DNA of 32,568 bases from NCBI GenBank assembly GCA_964523595.1, contig CAZFZO010000001.1, positions 5,633 through 38,200 of the forward strand, written 5' to 3'. Origin of the DNA: an uncultured Candidatus Saccharibacteria bacterium. GTDB taxonomy: Bacteria > Patescibacteriota > Minisyncoccia > UBA6257 > 1-14-0-10-44-23. Of the stretch, positions 3,035 through 29,117 are shown piece by piece. Every line of letters starts with the position of its first letter. Within the stretch, counting starts at the first letter, position 1. A program made the position numbers and the translations under genes. The notes below the pieces were generated by a model. The model did not search any database. It saw only the letters and a program-made list of their open reading frames with translations, and was not told where the DNA came from.

Positions 3035-4915
3035 CTATGGTTGATGCGAAGCCTGTGAGAGCTGCTGTTTCATTTTCTCGATATCTGAACTCTGCACCTC
3101 CTTTAATTTAGGTTTATCATTGCGCGGATGAAGCTCTGAGAGAGAAACTTCCTTTTTGGGTGCACCGCCCCCACCCCGAGACTGCTGATGAGGCCGCTGC
3201 TCATTGCGCGACTGTGAAGAATGCACAGGACGAGCTTGCTTTGGAGCCTCAAACTCAATACCAATCGAAGCAAGCGAAGAAACACCCTTATCCATATGCT
3301 CCTGCGTTGGCTTTTTAATCGGCTTCACTGGCTTGAGCTCGCCCTTCTGAATCTTATTCATGCAATCAGAGCAATACACTGGCCTGCCAGGCGTTGGCTT
3401 AAATGGCAATTTCGCCTCCTTGCCACACGAAGAACACACCGCGATAGTCATCTCATCAGTTGATCGCTCACTTGAACGAGCAGTTGGGGCACTCGCTGGT
3501 CGCGCAGCATGCGAACTCGCTGACGTCGAAGGAGCTGATGGAGTAGTAGTATCAATATTCGATCGTCGCGGGGCATCATCTTCAGCCTCTACGCCAGTAC
3601 CACTCGCCCAACGATTAATCGCCGCCTCAATATCCTCTCTGCGACGCGCATAACGCTCACGAGAAGCAGTAATAATCTCATCGAGCGTAGCCGAACCACC
3701 CCGGCTCTTAAATGGCGCGATAGTCGCGGCAGAAAATGGACGTGCCGTAAACCCATCAACCATTAATTTAAGATAGATGTGATAGTTCGGAAGGTTCACG
3801 ATATCTTCAACGGTAAATTCAGGAGCGAACTCATTCTCTAAAAACTCCGCATCGGCCGCACCAACACGAAATACCACCATCGTACCAGTGTTACCAAATA
3901 CCGCATCGCGCACCTTTGTCGAAACATCAGTTACGAGCTGACCAACGTACTGGTGAGCGATAATCAAATCTAAGCGATACTTACGCGCTTCAGAGAGAAC
4001 GCTCGCAAACGAATCAGTCGCAAAGTTTTGAAACTCGTCAACATACAAATAAAAATCTTTACGCTCATCCTCAGGAATACGTACGCGCTCCATAGCCGAA
4101 AGCTGAATCTTCGTAATAAGCATCGCACCTAAAAGCGCTGAGTTGTCTTCGCCGATACGCCCCTTCGACACGTTAACCAAAAAGATTTTTCGACTATTCA
4201 TAATGTCGAAAATATCAATCGTACTCGTCGTCTGTCCAACTACGTTACGAATAATCGACGTCGACAAAAACTGTCCAACTTTGTTTTGAATTGGAGCGAT
4301 AGCCTCTGAGCGAAACTTATCCTGCCACTCCTCATACTCATTAACCCAAAACGCTCGCACCACCGGGTCTTTTACGTTATTTACAATACGCTGACGATAG
4401 TTTTTATCGACAAGTAAACGCGGAATACCCAAAAGCGTAGTATTCGGAGTATCAAGCAACGCTAAAATCGCATTGTTCATAATATACTCCATACGTGCAC
4501 TCCACACGTTACTCCAAATCTTAGTAAAGATACCCATAAGTCCAGAAGCAACTAAGTGTTTGTAGCGTGGATCTGGGAGCTCGAGTACATTAAAACCCAT
4601 GTGATAGTCGATATCAGCTGGATTAAAATACACCACATCTTTAATGCGTTCTCGTGGAATCATCGAAAGCACTCCCTCAATCAACTCACCGTGTGGATCA
4701 ACCACACACAGCCCATCACCATTCGCAATATCTTGTGCGATTAAATTATGCAAAAAAGCAGACTTACCCGTACCCGTCTTCCCAATCACATACATGTGTT
4801 GACGACGGTCCTTTCGTTTTATACCAAAAAGTTTCGACGCACCTCGAAAATCAGTGCGAGCAAAATACACAACATTCTGGCTATTATCTGGCGCAGGTTG
4901 AGATGACTGGTGCAT
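3035..4915 (-). CDS. TraD/TrwB/VirD4-like (type IV coupling-protein-like) P-loop ATPase, soluble, with C-terminal CxxC-x17-CxxC zinc ribbon and basic low-complexity tail
   Basis: FGIKRKDRRQHMYVIGKTGTGKS (Walker A). FYLYVDEFQNF (Walker B). ARKYRLDLIIAHQYVGQL motif. No N-terminal TM segment. CSSC-GKEAKLPFKPTPGRPVY-CSDC is encoded at 3362-3436. Confidence 0.8.
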   Translation of the reverse strand: MHQSSQPAPDNSQNVVYFARTDFRGASKLFGIKRKDRRQHMYVIGKTGTGKSAFLHNLIAQDIANGDGLCVVDPHGELIEGVLSMIPRERIKDVVYFNPADIDYHMGFNVLELPDPRYKHLVASGLMGIFTKIWSNVWSARMEYIMNNAILALLDTPNTTLLGIPRLLVDKNYRQRIVNNVKDPVVRAFWVNEYEEWQDKFRSEAIAPIQNKVGQFLSTSIIRNVVGQTTSTIDIFDIMNSRKIFLVNVSKGRIGEDNSALLGAMLITKIQLSAMERVRIPEDERKDFYLYVDEFQNFATDSFASVLSEARKYRLDLIIAHQYVGQLVTDVSTKVRDAVFGNTGTMVVFRVGAADAEFLENEFAPEFTVEDIVNLPNYHIYLKLMVDGFTARPFSAATIAPFKSRGGSATLDEIITASRERYARRREDIEAAINRWASGTGVEAEDDAPRRSNIDTTTPSAPSTSASSHAARPASAPTARSSERSTDEMTIAVCSSCGKEAKLPFKPTPGRPVYCSDCMNKIQKGELKPVKPIKKPTQEHMDKGVSSLASIGIEFEAPKQARPVHSSQSRNEQRPHQQSRGGGGAPKKEVSLSELHPRNDKPKLKEVQSSDIEKMKQQLSQASHQP

Positions 4916-4938
4916 AGATATAATAAGTTACCTCTATT

Positions 4939-4966
4939 AGTATAGCGTAAAATAACCACGCCTCAA
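4939..4966 (-). promoter_or_regulatory. Candidate sigma70-type promoter for the second ATPase gene (TTGAGG-16-TATACT)
   Basis: On the minus strand, TTGAGG is at 4966-4961 and TATACT at 4944-4939, with a 16-nt spacer. It lies in the only sizeable gap (66 nt) inside the operon. Confidence 0.35.
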
Positions 4967-4981
4967 AAACTAAGATAAAGC

Positions 4982-6370
4982 CTAAAAAGAAGGCGGAGGA
5001 ACTGGTACGCGCCCACTCACCGCAGGGTGGCAGTATCTACCACGAAATGTTTTCATAATCTTCTCGCGAGCCGAAGGAGTATTTGGAGGCAGCACCTTGA
5101 GCGTTTCTGCTGAAAATGGATCGCACGGCTCACCGTCAATAACCATCTTAATATAAAACTCACGCTTCCCGAGGTTGATCATATCCTTAACCTTAAATAC
5201 AGGCGCAAGCTCACTCTCAAGTCGCTCCGCATCCTCTCCTCCAATACGAAACACAATTATCGTACCCACGTTACCAAAAATCGACGAGCGAAAATGCTCA
5301 ATAATCTGACCAAGGTACTGATGCGCGATCGTAAATGAGATGTGATACTTTTTTCCCTCAAATAACAAATTCTCAAACGTCTCCGTTATGAGATGATGGA
5401 ACTCATCGACATACACATTAAAATCTTTACGGGTCGCCTCGGGCTGATTCAGGCGTGCCATACCGGCTTGCTTGAGCTTAATCAAAAAGAGCCCGCCAAA
5501 AAAACTTGAGTTCTCTTTACCCAACTTTCCCTTATTAAGATTGATGAGTACGATTTTCTGACTTTTGAGCCAATCATTCACATCAATCGCATTCTCTTGT
5601 TTGGTAAAAATCGAACGAAGAAGTGGATCGGAAAAAAATTGAGCCAGTTTATTTACTAGTGGAGCAACCGCCTCCGCCTCGACTTTTTCCGTTTTCGTAG
5701 ACCAAGCCACAAACTCATCACGCCAAAACCGTTGCACCATCTCATCAGTGATGTGCGGGATAACTTCAGCGCGATACGCGGCATCAGTAAGCATCGAGAT
5801 CATACCGCGCATCGTCGCCTGCGGATAATCAAGAAGCGCGAGCACGATAAAACGAAACACGTGCTCGATATGAGCATTCCAACTCGCACCAAATTGCGAC
5901 TCAAGAATCTCGATAAGCCCTTGAGCAAACTGATGCCTAAACGCAGGCTCGATGCCTGACAACGGGTTAAAGGCCACCGGACAATCAATATCAGATGGAT
6001 CAATAACCAAAACATCTTCAGCCCGACCTTCAGGAATAAAATCCAAAATATCATTAATCAGATCTCCGTGTTGATCAAACAAGCAAACCCCCCTGCCCGC
6101 GCTAATATCCTGTCGAATCATAAGCTCCATAAGCTTCGTCTTGCCCGTGCCACTCTTTCCGATCATGTATACGTTTCGCCGGCGATCAACACGCTTAATA
6201 CCAAACACATACTTCTTCTCTTCGAGTGCCGCAACATAGTTCGTCTTTCCAATAAACGAAGTCTCGACTGTATCAACCTTACCCAGAACTGGAAGCTGCG
6301 CCGGAGGAGGCGCATACTTTACCGTCTGTAATTTTACTGCCGCGGACGCCGCCGGTTGTGGATCAGCCAT
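4982..6370 (-). CDS. TraD/TrwB/VirD4-like P-loop ATPase, soluble paralog of the downstream gene
   Basis: FGIKRVDRRRNVYMIGKSGTGKT (Walker A). FNVYVDEFHHL (Walker B). GKKYHISFTIAHQYLGQI. Collinear similarity to the 3035-4915 product along the whole core. No TM segment and no zinc ribbon. Confidence 0.8.
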   Translation of the reverse strand: MADPQPAASAAVKLQTVKYAPPPAQLPVLGKVDTVETSFIGKTNYVAALEEKKYVFGIKRVDRRRNVYMIGKSGTGKTKLMELMIRQDISAGRGVCLFDQHGDLINDILDFIPEGRAEDVLVIDPSDIDCPVAFNPLSGIEPAFRHQFAQGLIEILESQFGASWNAHIEHVFRFIVLALLDYPQATMRGMISMLTDAAYRAEVIPHITDEMVQRFWRDEFVAWSTKTEKVEAEAVAPLVNKLAQFFSDPLLRSIFTKQENAIDVNDWLKSQKIVLINLNKGKLGKENSSFFGGLFLIKLKQAGMARLNQPEATRKDFNVYVDEFHHLITETFENLLFEGKKYHISFTIAHQYLGQIIEHFRSSIFGNVGTIIVFRIGGEDAERLESELAPVFKVKDMINLGKREFYIKMVIDGEPCDPFSAETLKVLPPNTPSAREKIMKTFRGRYCHPAVSGRVPVPPPSF

Positions 6371-6379
6371 AAAAATAAA

Positions 6380-7030
6380 CTAGAAAGCATCTAGCTCCAT
6401 TAAGAAATCGCGAAACGCCTGAAGCGAGTTTTGCGCATCTTGTTGAGACACGCCAAATCCAGGCGTGTGAACTAAATCATTACGCAAGCGATGCGCCCTC
6501 CAGACTCGCTCCAAGCTCTTGAGCTCACCTGGTTGAATATTACTCAATCTATCCGCCATCGTCTCACCCGCGTACTCGGCGTGCTTTAAAAAATAATCAA
6601 CAAGTGTATCAGCCTCAATAATAGCTAATCGCATATTTTCAGGAGTCCCCGTCCGAAACCGAGCGACTAAATTATTCCAGTGGAGTAAAATCGTCTTATC
6701 TTTTTTCAACTTACGTTTCACCACAGCCACGCTCGGCGTCTCAAACATACTCACCTTAGGAAACGTATGCCAAGACTTCACGCCGCAGTAAATAATAAGA
6801 GCTAATAAGATGATATCGATAATCACAAAACTTGGGACAACCCACTGATGCCACCAAGCTGCCGCAGCAACTCCAGCGGTACCAAGCACATCAGTATTAA
6901 CTAGCTGATCGGCGGTATCAAAACCCGAACGTAAAACCGGCGACAAGATGTACGCTGCGATACCAATAATAACCACACCGACAACAACGGGTTCAAACCA
7001 ACCTGGACCTGATGCGTGTTCGTCAGCCAT
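6380..7030 (-). CDS. Polytopic membrane protein with cytoplasmic helical C-terminal domain carrying an Rx4H motif
   Basis: Hydrophobic segments VVVGVVIIGIAAYIL, GTAGVAAAAWW and FVIIDIILLALIIYCGV. The C-terminal domain reads ...ERVWRAHRLRNDLVHTPGFGVSQQDAQNSLQAFRDFL. There is a 5-nt gap to the upstream gene and a 9-nt gap to the downstream gene. Confidence 0.65.
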   Translation of the reverse strand: MADEHASGPGWFEPVVVGVVIIGIAAYILSPVLRSGFDTADQLVNTDVLGTAGVAAAAWWHQWVVPSFVIIDIILLALIIYCGVKSWHTFPKVSMFETPSVAVVKRKLKKDKTILLHWNNLVARFRTGTPENMRLAIIEADTLVDYFLKHAEYAGETMADRLSNIQPGELKSLERVWRAHRLRNDLVHTPGFGVSQQDAQNSLQAFRDFLMELDAF

Positions 7031-10028: not shown

Positions 10029-10056
10029 ATCATACGTGCACACCCTAAAATGTCAA
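10029..10056 (-). promoter_or_regulatory. Candidate promoter for the 9625-9993 gene (TTGACA-16-TATGAT)
   Basis: On the minus strand, TTGACA is at 10056-10051 and TATGAT at 10034-10029, with a 16-nt spacer. Confidence 0.4.
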
Positions 10057-10098
10057 AATAAAAATACCGCTGACCATTTCTGGCCAGCGGTATTTTTA
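10055..10098 (-). terminator. Rho-independent terminator of secDF (symmetrical, could act both ways)
   Basis: ATACCGCTGACCA (10064-10076) pairs with TGGCCAGCGGTAT (10081-10093) with one mismatch. The stem is flanked by A-run and T-run tracts and starts 7 nt after the secF stop. Confidence 0.7.
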
Positions 10099-10104
10099 TT
10101 TTAT

Positions 10105-11004
10105 TTATTTAGCCTTTGCAGACTTATTCCAGAGAACGAGTAATGGCGAGGCAACGAAAATCGAAGAGTATGTTCCGACGACCGTACCAACCAAGATCGT
10201 TAAGATAAAGTACTTAAGCGTTGTGGCTCCAAGTAGAAGCAAAACCGCAAGCACAATAAACAAGGTAAGCGAAGTATTGAGCGAACGAGCAAACGTCTCG
10301 TTAATACTGCGGTTAACCAATTCGCTAAAATGAACCTTACTCGTATCAGTGTGACGAAGATTTTCACGAATACGGTCAAACACAACAATCGTGTCGTGAA
10401 CCGAGAAACCGATAACGAGCAGTACCGCAACAATAAAGTTAGTATCAATTTCTACTCCCAGGAAGTGTCCGAGGAAAGTGTACATACCCAGCGGGATAAT
10501 CGCATCGTGGAAAAGTGTAATCAAGGTGATAAACGCATACTTCCAGCTACTTACCGGATACGAAACCTTACGAAACGCGTACGCGACATACAGCGCAATA
10601 CCAAACAAGTTGATGCCTAACGCCCAAAATGCTCGATTAACTAACTCTGAACCAATCGCCGCACCGATCGCCTGGAAACTCAACTCGGTCATCGGACCAA
10701 AACTCTTTATGAGCGCTTTATTATAAGCCTGGTGGTCCGCTTCAGTAATCTCTTTTGCCTTGATAATAAATCCTCCGGTCGACTCCTGCTGGTTTACTAC
10801 CGCATCAGCTAATTTCAAATCAGTTTGTACAAATGTACGAATCGCCGAAAGCTCTACTGGCTTACTAAACTCAACCTGCCAGTACGTACCACCGGTAAAA
10901 TCAATACCCTTCTCAAGACCAAAGGCGAAAAGACCAAAAACGCTCGCAACAATCAAGAGACTAGAAAACGTCAGAAAAATCCACTTGTGTTTAATGATGT
11001 TCAT
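10105..11004 (-). CDS. secF: Protein translocase subunit SecF
   Basis: GIDFTGGTYWQVEF signature, six-TM architecture, directly downstream of secD. Confidence 0.9.
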   Translation of the reverse strand: MNIIKHKWIFLTFSSLLIVASVFGLFAFGLEKGIDFTGGTYWQVEFSKPVELSAIRTFVQTDLKLADAVVNQQESTGGFIIKAKEITEADHQAYNKALIKSFGPMTELSFQAIGAAIGSELVNRAFWALGINLFGIALYVAYAFRKVSYPVSSWKYAFITLITLFHDAIIPLGMYTFLGHFLGVEIDTNFIVAVLLVIGFSVHDTIVVFDRIRENLRHTDTSKVHFSELVNRSINETFARSLNTSLTLFIVLAVLLLLGATTLKYFILTILVGTVVGTYSSIFVASPLLVLWNKSAKAK

Positions 11005-25343: not shown

Positions 25344-26012
25344 ATGGGAAAAGAAAGCTGCATTTACTGCCAAAAAAATAAAGCTACAAGTCGCGATCAT
25401 GTAATCTCAAAGGGCTTATTCCCTGATAATTATAAAATTAAAAACCCAATAACAGTTCCAGCTTGTCAGGATTGTAACCAAGGGTTTTCTCTTAATGAAG
25501 AGTACTTTAGAACGTTCCTATCCAACTTCCACGAAAATTCTCCAGAGGCAAAAAGTTTATTTGATTCAAAAGTCACTAGATCTTTAAAAAGAAGTCCAAA
25601 GTTAGTTAATAAAATTGCCGAGAGAATGGAATTAGTCCACGCCTACACAAAAGAAAAGGAGTATATTGGCATTAAAACAAAAATCTCCATTACTCCGGAA
25701 GACTGGGAAAGACATTTTAAAGTTCTAGATAAATACGTTAAAGGTCTTTTTTACCACGAATTTAAGCAGCCACTGCCTCCTGACTATCAAATAAGACATA
25801 AGTGGGGAGATAAAGAGAAATTTCATAAAGCTTTTGCCCCAAATATTCTAAAATGGAACAGGGATAATGAAAAAATATTGCTATATGGCTACAACTATGT
25901 CCCCGAAACTATGCAATCCATATGGTCACTCGTCTTCTTTAACACAATCTGCTTTCAAAGTTTTGCATTAAAATTCGAGGATTTTAAAAGAATAGATAAA
26001 ACAAAAAACTAA
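25344..26012 (+). CDS. HNH-like (beta-beta-alpha-metal) nuclease N-terminal motif fused to an unknown domain, low G+C
   Basis: CIYCQKNKATSRDHVISKGLF...ITVPACQDCN resembles the CxxC...(D/E)H...CxxCN layout of HNH_5-type nucleases. The remaining roughly 170 aa are unrecognised. Confidence 0.5.
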   Translation: MGKESCIYCQKNKATSRDHVISKGLFPDNYKIKNPITVPACQDCNQGFSLNEEYFRTFLSNFHENSPEAKSLFDSKVTRSLKRSPKLVNKIAERMELVHAYTKEKEYIGIKTKISITPEDWERHFKVLDKYVKGLFYHEFKQPLPPDYQIRHKWGDKEKFHKAFAPNILKWNRDNEKILLYGYNYVPETMQSIWSLVFFNTICFQSFALKFEDFKRIDKTKN

Positions 26013-26684: not shown

Positions 26685-27086
26685 TTATCCAGTAATCTTA
26701 CGCAAAATCATCTGATACTCCTCTGTCGACGGCTCAACCAGCGTCCCATCAAGGTGCACTTTCGAGGTAATGTCAGTACGTTCTTCGATAGGCACAACGT
26801 GCACGTGCGCGTGTGGCACATCCCAGCCAGCGATAATCAGTCCCACTCGTTTTGGCTTAAGTTTCGCCTTCAAAAGCTTCGCAGTCTTATGCACAGTTAA
26901 CATCATCGCTTGATACGTCTCGGTATCGAGTTCATCAAAGTCAGGATTGTGCTTTTTCGGAATAACCAGCGTATGCCCCGGACGAATCGGCCCCTTAGTT
27001 AAAAAAGCCATTGTCTGCTCATCTTCTGACACCTTAAACGCCGGAATCTCTCCCTTTACGATCTTACAAAAAATACAAGTATCCAT
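26685..27086 (-). CDS. HIT-family (histidine triad) hydrolase
   Basis: CIFCKIVKGEIP N-terminus and the HAHVHVVP histidine triad. Confidence 0.9.
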   Translation of the reverse strand: MDTCIFCKIVKGEIPAFKVSEDEQTMAFLTKGPIRPGHTLVIPKKHNPDFDELDTETYQAMMLTVHKTAKLLKAKLKPKRVGLIIAGWDVPHAHVHVVPIEERTDITSKVHLDGTLVEPSTEEYQMILRKITG

Positions 27087-27304
27087 AGCTAAAATGGTAG
27101 CACAATTTATATAGAATTATCTATTCAACTAAATAGGTGCAATGTATAGTTCAAGATTTTTTGCCAAGCGCAAGGCGCCAAGCCGAAGTTGTAAGACAAC
27201 ATCGAAATAGATAGCGGAGGATTTTCATAGCGGTACGAGGCGCAAGGGCGAAGCTGTACATAAGCAACAGCGTACTGCGAGCCTGCAGCAACAAAGTACC
27301 GCCG

Positions 27305-27336
27305 TAAAAAAACCCGCTAAGTGCGCTGCTTAAGGG
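27305..27336 (-). terminator. Weak terminator-like hairpin plus U7 tract after the duplicated tRNA 3' fragment
   Basis: CCCGCTAAG (27313-27321) pairs with CTTAAGGG (27329-27336) as 4 + 3 bp with an internal loop. The A7 run at 27306-27312 gives U7 on the minus strand. Confidence 0.35.
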
Positions 27337-27350
27337 AATCGAACCCTTGT
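27322..27350 (-). pseudogene. Orphan tRNA-Glu 3' fragment (variable loop end, T arm, acceptor 3' strand, discriminator +2)
   Basis: 29/29 identical to 27713-27741 (tgcgctgcttaagggaatcgaacccttgt on the plus strand). No matching 5' acceptor strand GCTGCTT anywhere in 27351-27712. Confidence 0.85.
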
Positions 27351-27683
27351 CGACCAGTATCCCGACGGTAGCTCTTGCGGCGTTGCAAGCCTGTCGCGCA
27401 CAGGACAAGGAACGCGAAGTGAAAATATCGGAAATATATGAACGACAAGCGACACAGTAATGTGCGCGACAGGCAGCAACCTCCGGACACGATTCCGTGA
27501 GGCAAACTGCTGCGTTGCTCGCACTCAACATATCACCGATATATTCTCGCGCTCGCGCCTTGCATTTCGCCTCACGGAAAGTGTCGCCGCGGAGATTACC
27601 GTCAGGACACTGGTCCTGCCGGAGAGGGCTAGCCCTCTCACGGCGCAAACAAAGACGCGAATACTCCTAGCCAGCACAAAATC
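27351..27683 (-). ncRNA. Candidate structured RNA / element remnant between the tRNA-Glu repeats (strand and ends uncertain)
   Basis: G+C-rich and non-coding-looking. Perfect long-range complements are 27389-27402/27461-27474 (14 bp) and 27493-27503/27569-27579 (11 bp). An 18-nt palindrome lies at 27622-27639, a hairpin at 27603-27618 and a hairpin at 27374-27389. The segment is bracketed by two terminator-like hairpins. Confidence 0.3.
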
Positions 27684-27708
27684 AAAAATGGGACTTTGTC
27701 CCATTTTT
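27676..27708 (-). terminator. Rho-independent terminator directly after tRNA-Glu (perfectly symmetrical)
   Basis: AAAAATGGGAC-TTT-GTCCCATTTTT (27684-27708). On the minus strand the stem is followed by TTTTTGATTTTG. Confidence 0.7.
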
Positions 27709-27714
27709 GACATG

Positions 27715-27786
27715 CGCTGCTTAAGGGAATCGAACCCTTGTTTGCGCCGTGAGAGGGCGCCGTCCTAGCCACTAGACGAAAGCAGC
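27715..27786 (-). tRNA. tRNA-Glu (anticodon CTC)
   Basis: Hand fold of the minus strand: GCTGCTT-TC-GTCT-AGTGGCTA-GGAC-G-GCGCC-CTCTCAC-GGCGC-AAAC-AAGGG-TTCGATT-CCCTT-AAGCAGC-G. All stems are Watson-Crick or G-U. No encoded CCA. Confidence 0.9.
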
Positions 27787-27797
27787 AAACAAAACTC

Positions 27798-29117
27798 CTA
27801 AGCTGACTTTTCCGCTCGCACAGTCAGCCCCTCAACCACGGTTTTAAGTCCCACCGCCTTAGAGGCTTTAATTAAAACTAAATCTCCCGATTTTATCAAG
27901 CTCAAGCAAGCAACTAGCGCATCTTCCGCACTCTTACACACAATCACCGACTTCGCAGGCATCTTCGCCTTTTTCGCCGCCTCCGCCACAACTCCCGCAT
28001 AATCTCCAACCACAACGAGCACGTCTAATGAGCGCGCAGCCAACCGACCAAGCTGTTCGTGTGCCATCTGACTAAACTTTCCCAGCTCACGCATATCTCC
28101 GAGTACACCAATCTTCCGTTTCGCCTTAAGCTCGCTTACCGCCTCGAGCGCATTACCCATCGAAAGTGGCGAAGCGTTATACGCGTCATCAAAAAGAAGC
28201 GACTCGTTAATACCCGCAACAAATTTAAATCGATGAGCTGGTGGCTGATAATACGCAAGCGCATCCGCAATCTTTACCAAATTCATACCGCAGCTAAGCC
28301 CAACCGCTGCTGCAGCCGCACACGCGTACGCCTGGGCTCTGCCAAGAGTTCCCGAAATACGTACTGGCGCAAACGCCCCGTTATACGAAAGCTTAAACGT
28401 CACGCCGATCGGACGCGGGAAACGAATCCCCTTACCCGACTCAACTTTTGTCTCAAAATTATCAACGCGCACCTGCGCCCCCTCGCCAAAACCAAAGGTA
28501 ATCGTCTTCGCACGTGTCTTATCCTTCATTGAAAATACTCGCTCATCATCAGAATTAAGAACCGCGCTGCCGCTGACTAAAAGCGCCTCAAGAAGCCGCC
28601 CTTTTTCAATCGCAACCGCATCTGGCCCATCATAATACTCAACATGAACTGGCATATCGCCAACCGCCGTAACCACGCCGATTTGCGGACGAGCGATCTG
28701 CGTTAAATATTTAATGTCTCCCGGACGATCAGCGCCATACTCAAGAATAAGAAACTCTGGATATGCTTTTGCTGAACCAAACAATAAGCGTGTCGCGCTT
28801 ACTAAAATCACCTTGAGCCAAAAAAACGCCTTGGCCACGACCCTCCCGCCCGGTGCCGCGTCACGACTGATTAAGCGCAAATCTTCCTCACGCCACTCAC
28901 CTAAAATGGCCAACGGAAATCCAACTTCGCTGTTGTGACTATCAGCTGATGCCCGCACTCGAAACGCACTCGAAAGAACCGATTTAATCGCAAACTTGGT
29001 CGAAGTTTTCCCCACACTTCCCGTAACGCCAATCACCACTGGCTTAAACTTAGCCAGCGTCGCCTTCGAGAGTACGCGTAAAATCGACTCGAGAGTTTTG
29101 CGAACAAATACACGCAT
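27798..29117 (-). CDS. murF: UDP-N-acetylmuramoyl-tripeptide--D-alanyl-D-alanine ligase MurF
   Basis: VIGVTGSVGKTSTK P-loop, DDAYNASP motif, and position after ftsI in the dcw cluster. Confidence 0.9.
   Translation of the reverse strand: MRVFVRKTLESILRVLSKATLAKFKPVVIGVTGSVGKTSTKFAIKSVLSSAFRVRASADSHNSEVGFPLAILGEWREEDLRLISRDAAPGGRVVAKAFFWLKVILVSATRLLFGSAKAYPEFLILEYGADRPGDIKYLTQIARPQIGVVTAVGDMPVHVEYYDGPDAVAIEKGRLLEALLVSGSAVLNSDDERVFSMKDKTRAKTITFGFGEGAQVRVDNFETKVESGKGIRFPRPIGVTFKLSYNGAFAPVRISGTLGRAQAYACAAAAAVGLSCGMNLVKIADALAYYQPPAHRFKFVAGINESLLFDDAYNASPLSMGNALEAVSELKAKRKIGVLGDMRELGKFSQMAHEQLGRLAARSLDVLVVVGDYAGVVAEAAKKAKMPAKSVIVCKSAEDALVACLSLIKSGDLVLIKASKAVGLKTVVEGLTVRAEKSA

Follow-up and report, generated by a model that had tools for sequence, protein, structure and literature searches.

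This report concerns a stretch of DNA of 32,568 nucleotides (nt) from an uncultured Candidatus Saccharibacteria bacterium, referred to throughout as the window, and a 334-nt unit that lies in it on the minus strand, behind the gene for the transfer RNA (tRNA) tRNA-Glu(CTC). Judged from its rate of change among relatives, the unit is under strong purifying selection. On balance it is probably a dispensable, lineage-specific structured non-coding RNA (ncRNA), which would have arisen from partial duplications of tRNA-Glu at a recombination-prone site. The place drew attention through a perfect repeat of the tRNA 3' end, which the original prediction read as the att footprint of site-specific integration into a tRNA gene. 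That reading survives in part. The duplicate is real at the level of DNA and the site is variable, but the idea of a gutted insert is not supported.

The Repeat and the tRNA Gene

The 29-mer TGCGCTGCTTAAGGGAATCGAACCCTTGT occurs twice in the window and nowhere else in it, even when up to three mismatches are allowed, and no copy is expected in shuffled sequence. It is the sole perfect direct repeat of at least 20 nt in the window. The two copies are identical at 29 of 29 positions, their flanking bases are unlike on either side, and 362 nt (27351-27712) stand between them, exactly as had been described. ARAGORN and Rfam likewise confirm the earlier view that the right copy belongs to an intact tRNA-Glu(CTC), on the minus strand, and that the left copy is an orphan (Table 1). 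Within the tRNA, the repeat runs from the variable loop to 2 nt beyond the discriminator. Because these 2 nt are gene flank (CA) and not CCA, the 29-mer was copied from the gene at the DNA level and not from a mature tRNA.

The tRNA-Glu itself is 100% identical across all relatives. It starts 11 nt past the stop codon of murF, with all neighbours on the same strand, and is therefore probably co-transcribed with the dcw operon.

Conservation and Selection

Related loci were retrieved and are given here as L numbers. The relatives with the arrangement amount to three variants: the window, L015 (equal to L018, with a partial copy in L016), and the type shared by L001, L004, L005 and L006. Between the window and L001, the unit has diverged by 5.7% over its 334 nt, the substitutions being 0 of 40 nt in an antisense 5' end, 19 of 264 in a core, and 0 of 30 in a tail that holds the orphan 29-mer. 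Elsewhere in the same comparison, the tRNA shows 0% divergence; the values are 3% in the terminator behind it (1 substitution in 33 nt), 28% in a 25-nt spacer that separates the terminator from the unit, 27% in the 26 nt past the unit, and 5.6% in a second non-coding block at 27207-27295. Four-fold degenerate sites of the adjacent genes differ by 0.377 in murF and 0.402 in the gene for a penicillin-binding protein (PBP), so that the unit evolves about 6-7 times slower than neighbouring synonymous sites. Counted from the tRNA, the conservation sets in after about 57 nt, and its far limit coincides exactly with the final base of the orphan 29-mer.

These near-neutral 25-nt spacers lie beside blocks that are 5-7 times slower, which argues against a recent tract of recombination or transfer. 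While synonymous sites diverged by about 38%, the unit kept its place, a pattern that points to vertical descent under selection and not to recent mobility. The two lineages that carry it are, moreover, also unlike upstream of the tRNA, where a GIY-YIG remnant is present in L001 only. Under the duplication origin proposed below, the repeat would be the unit's own conserved 3' module and not a fresh attL/attR pair. The best reading is thus that the unit is not a recent integration footprint. The slow evolution, together with changes in the stems that keep the pairs, leaves the 362 bp unsupported as a gutted or passively carried insert.

The Fold and Its Preservation

The fold of the insert is extremely strong on either strand, at z = -12 (minus) and z = -14 (plus), a property that the original prediction had missed. 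On a fold computed solely from the window sequence, paired positions hold 13 of L001's 19 substitutions, and these break 0 pairs, compared with 5.0 +/- 1.5 broken pairs when the same substitutions are placed at random (P = 0.0004). Across the three variants there are 116 pairs, with 100% of the cells paired; 4 pairs are changed on both sides (two in helix P3, two in helix P4) and 5 on one side. Over a longer stretch, RNAalifold gives 158 pairs with 4 double changes, 11 one-sided changes and 0 broken. Pair-keeping changes and a rate slower than neutral, which together mark a structured RNA, are therefore both found, in three variants from two lineages.

The strand can be told from the wobble pairs. 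All one-sided changes, and 6 invariant pairs as well, are G-U on the minus strand, where the plus strand would have an A-C mismatch. The minimum free energy is also lower on the minus strand (-170 kcal/mol vs -155 kcal/mol). Under the modelled fold, the evolution of helices P1, P3 and P4 is base-pair-preserving, and the wobble changes fit the minus strand only. The RNA would most likely be read from that strand, in the same direction as tRNA-Glu. The original prediction had named as its own refutation a state in which all relatives share the arrangement with compensatory conservation, as in a functional RNA gene. This is largely what is seen, since every relative that has the arrangement keeps it in that manner.

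A protein-coding role was considered and rejected. The open reading frames (ORFs) within the insert have no Pfam match, the substitutions are spread over the codon positions as 7/5/7, and the long ORF has a stop in L001; the even spread and the interrupted frame indicate a non-coding unit. In the tail region, a local fold resembling tRNA-Sec (15 bits) was likewise discarded, as the substitutions in L001 break the local hairpin and keep the long-range P4. With the Rfam 15 models at the gathering score, only two tRNAs pass in the whole window, and at E <= 10 the region 27050-27850 gives only weak tRNA-related matches.

Anatomy of the Unit

From its 5' end on the minus strand, the unit consists of an antisense 21-mer, hairpin P1a, the 264-nt core, and finally GAC with a T-arm hairpin and an acceptor 3' strand that ends in GCA. 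In P1a, the antisense segment is paired with a sense-like partner, GCCCUCUC-CGGC, and the hairpin includes an 18-nt perfect palindrome, GAGAGGGCTAGCCCTCTC, at 27622-27639. The core is closed by the 19-bp helix P1, whose arms are complementary at 17 of 19 positions and resemble terminal inverted repeats. Its branches are P3 (27493-27510 with 27562-27579, plus extensions) and P4 (27389-27402 with 27461-27474). In P4, the two double compensatory changes are C-G to U-A and A-U to G-C, and of the 6 unpaired substitutions, 5 lie in its loop. The unit can also pair its first bases with its last, as helix 1 of the three-variant fold.

The two ends are both related to tRNA-Glu. The antisense 5' end covers tRNA positions ~29-48 and the 3' end is identical to positions 45-76 plus 2 nt, with an overlap of 4 nt, and the two ends jointly tile the 3' two-thirds of the tRNA on opposite strands. 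A 7-bp acceptor partner for the orphan tail was sought inside the unit and none was found, the best partner being the 5' strand of the intact tRNA itself. An independent tRNA-like domain is therefore rejected, and the tail is regarded as tRNA-derived.

Between the tRNA and the unit, the hairpin behind tRNA-Glu is a good intrinsic terminator, palindromic and with A/T runs on both sides. It forms the centre of a 128-nt palindrome of 77%, in which the innermost part (27682-27710) is perfect. Best kept within this long palindrome are the 21 nt that repeat the anticodon arm and variable loop perfectly in inverted orientation (27632-27652 vs 27738-27758), a feature that the original prediction had missed. 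The spacer matches the tRNA T-arm and acceptor 3' end in inverted orientation at ~60%, as a degenerate copy, and it falls outside the conserved unit. A terminator-like hairpin had been proposed behind each copy of the repeat. This is right for the intact tRNA and not for the orphan, where the hairpin at 27313-27336 was missed by the terminator scan, gains nothing over shuffled sequence in its local fold (z = -0.7), and is not kept by relatives. After the orphan tail, the relatives keep only a T-run 10-13 nt downstream.

Table 1. Features at and around the tRNA-Glu(CTC) gene, with positions in the window
Feature	Positions	Strand	Evidence
Intact tRNA-Glu(CTC)	27714..27786	-	ARAGORN; Rfam tRNA, 63 bits vs 29-bit threshold; identity in relatives
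Proximal 29-mer (variable loop AC, T-arm, acceptor 3' strand, discriminator G, CA)	27713..27741	-	repeat search
Intrinsic terminator	27681..27711	-	terminator scan; centre of 128-nt imperfect palindrome
Unconstrained spacer	27656..27680	-	28% divergence from L001
Conserved structured unit, proposed ncRNA, 334 nt	27322..27655	-	5.7% divergence; 116 pairs kept in 3 variants; no codon signal
Antisense 21-mer of tRNA ~29-48 (anticodon stem-loop, variable loop)	27632..27652	-	inverted-repeat search
Hairpin P1a	27618..27644	-	helix 2 of three-variant fold; self-match of GAGAGGGCTAGCCCTCTC
P1 5' arm, pairs with 27352-27370	27597..27615	-	helix 3; U-G to C-G in L001
P3, long branched hairpin	27486..27585	-	helices 4-6; two double compensatory changes (G-C to A-U), four one-sided wobble changes
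P4, 5-bp and 14-bp helix closing an AU-rich loop of ~58 nt	27382..27480	-	helices 7-9
P1 3' arm	27352..27370	-	pairs with 27597-27615
Orphan 29-mer, invariant 3' end of unit	27322..27350	-	0 substitutions in 30 nt; T-arm-like hairpin 27332-27348
U-run 10 nt past tail	27306..27312	-	T-rich run in 4/4 variants, surrounding bases vary
Second conserved non-coding block (3' domain)	27207..27295	-	5.6% divergence vs L001; modules permuted in L015, L016

Relatives and Variability of the Locus

The MurF protein of the window has a 94% match to a Candidatus Saccharibacteria metagenome-assembled genome (MAG). The lineage is thinly sampled, and MurF relatives fall from 94% directly to 55% identity. Among five distant relatives with MurF identities of 36-56% (L002, L003, L010, L011 and L013), the unit was found in none, and by this sampling of sequences it is confined to one small Saccharibacteria lineage.

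Among close relatives, the stretch between tRNA-Glu and HIT takes three forms. It holds the unit only in the window, the unit and a patatin-like phospholipase gene in the L001 type, and a DUF218 gene without the unit in L008. The patatin gene stands between the conserved non-coding block and HIT (L004:5053-5766, L005:4957-5766) and is absent in the window. L008 has neither the unit nor the orphan repeat; its MurF protein is 97.7% identical and its four-fold sites are 35% diverged. The order there is murF, a 5' fragment of a broken tRNA-Glu into which hairpins have been inserted, a small gene of the GIY-YIG type (Pfam PF01541), an intact tRNA-Glu, and the DUF218 gene, which begins directly after ...GCGCA. 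The broken part (L008:4312-4790) reads GCTGCTT, a 75-nt GC-rich hairpin insert, TCGTCTTAGTGGCTAG, a 21-nt hairpin insert, and GACGGCGCCC. It looks like a cassette that entered the anticodon-loop region bringing its own copy of the tRNA. About 35 nt of the GIY-YIG 3' end are retained upstream of the tRNA in L001.

The HIT gene (window 26685-27086) is mosaic, with 67% nucleotide identity to L004 (51 of 134 residues changed), 97.5% to L008 and 96% to L015. The genes that flank it are about 86-89% identical to L004 and, for murF only, to L008. The variable zone downstream of tRNA-Glu would therefore include HIT. The modules after the orphan tail are also reordered in L015:680-900 and L016:60-290 relative to window 27142-27295; short TTCG motifs mark the joints, and an additional palindrome of 18 nt is present in L015. 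In a JGI contig (L009:2435-3077), a MurF gene of 455 residues, a member of the same 90% cluster, lacks tRNA-Glu behind it and gives way to unrelated sequence rich in GC; the contig may be chimeric through misassembly or represent one more rearranged allele.

Among the five distant relatives, which belong to the candidate phyla radiation (CPR), tRNA-Glu(CTC) adjoins murF in four, and no tRNA was found in L011. Its orientation relative to murF is the same in the window, L002 and L013 and opposite in L003 and L010. In L003, a Kaiserbacteria MAG, a 26-nt inverted copy (92%) of the tRNA-Glu 3' end (5964-5989 vs 6791-6816) brackets 801 nt. These 801 nt hold a nucleotidyltransferase-like ORF of 202 residues, and a further T-arm-like fragment lies at 5728-5743 (region 5728-6867). 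A 380-nt non-coding stretch before the orphan copy of L003 folds moderately well (z = -3.8). Because the tRNA-Glu-HIT stretch differs among close relatives and orphan fragments occur in a distant CPR genome, the site is a recombination hot spot at tRNA-Glu.

Proposed Origin and Expression

The unit may have arisen by partial duplications of tRNA-Glu, in which an inverted copy was laid down across the terminator hairpin and a second forward copy followed, the body of which would now hold the 264-nt core. The 3' two-thirds of the tRNA are indeed present three times: forward in the gene, inverted (21 nt perfect, the remainder at ~60% in the spacer), and forward again as GCCCUCUC-CGGC, then the core, then ACAAGGG...GCGCA. 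Both junctions lie at perfect palindromes, namely those of the terminator and GAGAGGGCTAGCCCTCTC. From its letters, this origin resembles a snap-back (tandem inversion) duplication, followed by gain of the core. Three options had been listed at the outset, and of them a tRNA-Glu duplication with one copy disrupted is nearest to the likely origin. Duplication and an old integrase-mediated insertion fit the data alike, and the conclusion on selection is the same under either.

As to expression, the interval has no promoter match, and for this reason the unit would be produced by read-through or co-transcription from the murF-tRNA-Glu transcript. Processing would define its ends, which the T-arm-like tail and the 5'/3' closing helix would stabilise.

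Several points weigh against a structured ncRNA. The covariation is thin, as it comes from three variants in two independent lineages, and all four double changes derive from one lineage split. Template switching can make the arms of long near-perfect hairpins change together even where no RNA is selected, and a role as single-stranded DNA would fit the same strand-specific wobble pattern. A good terminator stands between the tRNA and the unit, in an interval that lacks a promoter match. Lastly, the absence of the unit from L008, despite a MurF protein that is 97.7% identical, means that it is not essential.

Alternative Explanations

The alternative that survives best is an old site-specific integration, which we nevertheless consider unlikely. 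The unit would then be a miniature element without an integrase (391 bp including one repeat), placed in the 3' part of tRNA-Glu by a recombinase acting in trans. The proximal 29-mer and the strong terminator would represent attL, and the orphan 29-mer with the original weak trailer and T-run would represent attR. The folded core would be the cis-acting module of the element, and the 21-nt antisense segment would recognise the tRNA just 5' of the crossover. Much of the anatomy suits this: the block of identity starts within the tRNA and extends 2 nt beyond it, in every context the variable DNA sets in exactly behind GCGCA, the T-run is kept after the orphan copy as expected of an original tRNA trailer, and the perfect antisense 21-mer abuts the repeat with its overlap of 4 nt. 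The presence of the unit in some relatives and its absence in another also fit, as do the GIY-YIG cassette and displaced 5' fragment at the same tRNA in L008 and the orphan fragments in the Kaiserbacteria genome.

Comparison of the HIT-murF interval, which had been suggested as a check, reveals a variable region but no empty site with the same flanks; none of the relatives examined joins the tRNA to the DNA past the orphan repeat, and L008 has the DUF218 gene there instead. It had been observed that the bracketed DNA encodes no recombinase, and this extends to the whole 32.5-kb window, in which no ORF is an integrase, transposase or reverse transcriptase. A second copy of the unit or of its core is lacking in the window and in the retrieved relative loci. 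Exact scans with the tail 23-mer and the core 21-mer gave no match in IMG/VR and, in the JGI metagenome contigs, only L017, a chance 21-mer match. Searches of phage GenBank by blastn gave no match, and none of the three collections yielded a contig with an attP or the core, or a larger element. The further copies, or larger elements with an integrase at tRNA-Glu, that the integration idea had called for are thus missing from the window and from all three collections. Persistence at one site over the synonymous divergence given above, with neutral-rate spacers alongside, speaks against it as well.

Two further proposals give the unit a different role, and both are improbable. In one, the unit is a novel type of RNA-only element whose two ends address the tRNA-Glu gene, serving as a guide-like RNA by which a recombinase or nuclease encoded elsewhere could home into tRNA-Glu, or as a mimic or partner of tRNA-Glu with a regulatory or defensive purpose. 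In the other, to which we give equally little credence, it is a cis-acting element of the transcript, a processing or insulating segment between the dcw-tRNA-Glu transcript and HIT-rplU with no role in trans. Such a segment could be a platform for processing by RNase III or RNase P/Z, or a 5' leader. The lack of a promoter match agrees with a cis-acting segment, and so do the same-strand neighbours, with the tRNA close behind murF and HIT behind a non-coding stretch. Read-through would also allow a long duplex between the antisense segment and the 3' two-thirds of the tRNA, with the terminator at its tip. The gene behind the unit varies, however, being HIT in the window and patatin in L001, and L008 manages without such an element, with an ORF directly behind the tRNA. 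The region immediately upstream of HIT is, in addition, unconserved.

Very unlikely, in our judgement, is selfish or neutral palindromic DNA. A 264-bp element with 19-bp inverted ends, similar to miniature inverted-repeat transposable elements (MITEs), would have entered a duplicated tRNA fragment; the compensatory changes would come from template switching at quasi-palindromes, and the low divergence from recombination between strains. In favour of this are the inverted ends, with 17 of 19 positions matched, and a size that MITEs typically have. The helices, too, are near-perfect and of unusual length, other small hairpin insertions occur in the broken tRNA copy of L008, and the region is mosaic, as seen in HIT (67% vs 97.5% identity to two relatives). 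Yet there is no target-site duplication at the inverted ends and no other copy in the window. The two spurious ORFs of the element were compared with 15 billion predicted proteins and have no homologues outside the same locus in the same lineage. The neutral-rate spacers of 25 nt adjoin blocks of 0-7%, which is beyond what recombination tracts produce, and the one-sided stem changes are all G-U on one strand, a bias that template switching would not favour.

A group I or group II intron in the tRNA gene can be dismissed, as no intron model matches, the tRNA is intact upstream of the insert without splicing, and the bases at the repeat boundary misfit both group I (exon U, intron-terminal G) and group II (GUGYG...AY).

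Other Features of the Window

The remaining genes of the window are housekeeping genes. They include mraZ, mraW, the PBP gene and murF; HIT and rplU; recR, dnaB and cysS; corA, a signal peptidase gene, grpE, dnaK and dnaJ; and secDF, a sigma factor gene and two genes for VirD4-like ATPases. The last two are adjacent paralogous ORFs (window 3035-6370; 626 and 462 residues) with coupling-ATPase domains of the TrwB/TraG/VirD4 type, and the larger adds a treble-clef zinc finger. Between recR and rplU, on the strand opposite to rplU, lies an ORF of 222 residues (25344-26012) with a weak N-terminal match to HNH_5. It has a counterpart in L004, and in the more distant L010 rplU and recR are adjacent without it. 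At the gene boundary upstream of secF, a 40-nt AT-rich inverted repeat (10037-10120; 78% complementary, 4-nt loop) is probably a terminator or regulatory hairpin.

Significance and Comparison with Known Systems

If the unit is an RNA, it would represent a candidate class of structured RNA in Saccharibacteria, with ends made of recycled tRNA sequence. To our knowledge, the ncRNAs of Saccharibacteria are hardly known. The narrow distribution limits the present weight of the unit. The tRNA-Glu(CTC) gene beside murF is also of interest as a recurrent target of rearrangement in CPR, with a GIY-YIG cassette, orphan fragments in both orientations and a flipped tRNA.

Genomic islands in tRNA genes and in genes for transfer-messenger RNA (tmRNA) are inserted by tyrosine integrases, their attL and attR being the 3' part of the tRNA, and derivatives without an integrase are referred to as cis-mobilizable elements (CIMEs). 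The unit shares with them a direct repeat identical to the tRNA 3' part, an intact tRNA at one end and a strain-variable site. It differs in that it holds no integrase or cargo genes, brackets only 362 bp, and shows structure-preserving purifying selection; neither an empty site with matching flanks nor any free or larger form was found. A repeat of a tRNA 3' end is routinely taken as the scar of an island. Here it brackets a conserved structured unit, and the signature alone can thus mislead annotation.

The core is comparable to MITEs in its 264 bp, its 19-bp inverted ends (17/19 matched) and its strong fold, and is unlike them in that its flanks (...CGGCAG / GACAAGG...) have no target-site duplication, no other copies were seen, and it evolves far slower than neutral. 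The unit is similar to tmRNA in size (~330-360 nt), in a 3' end of the T-arm and acceptor type, and in a long helix that leads from the paired ends into a structured body. However, its acceptor is of the tRNA-Glu type without a G3-U70 pair, it has no 7-bp acceptor partner and no short tag frame, and it is absent from the close relative L008. A tmRNA is therefore rejected, and neither ARAGORN nor the Rfam tmRNA models give a match.

Tandem inversion duplications, known in Salmonella, consist of forward, inverted and forward copies joined at short palindromes by snap-back replication. The order of the tRNA 3' parts at this locus is the same, with both junctions at perfect palindromes. Unlike in such duplications, the third copy is split by the 264-nt core with no second terminator copy behind it, and the middle copy has decayed except for one perfect part.

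ROOL and GOLLD are lineage-specific structured ncRNAs of unknown function that occur near tRNA genes. The unit is set apart from them by the lack of an Rfam match even at E <= 10, by its smaller size (334 nt), and by ends that copy the neighbouring tRNA. As in ROOL and GOLLD, it is large, highly structured and non-coding, lies beside a tRNA gene, and is dispensable and patchy in its distribution.

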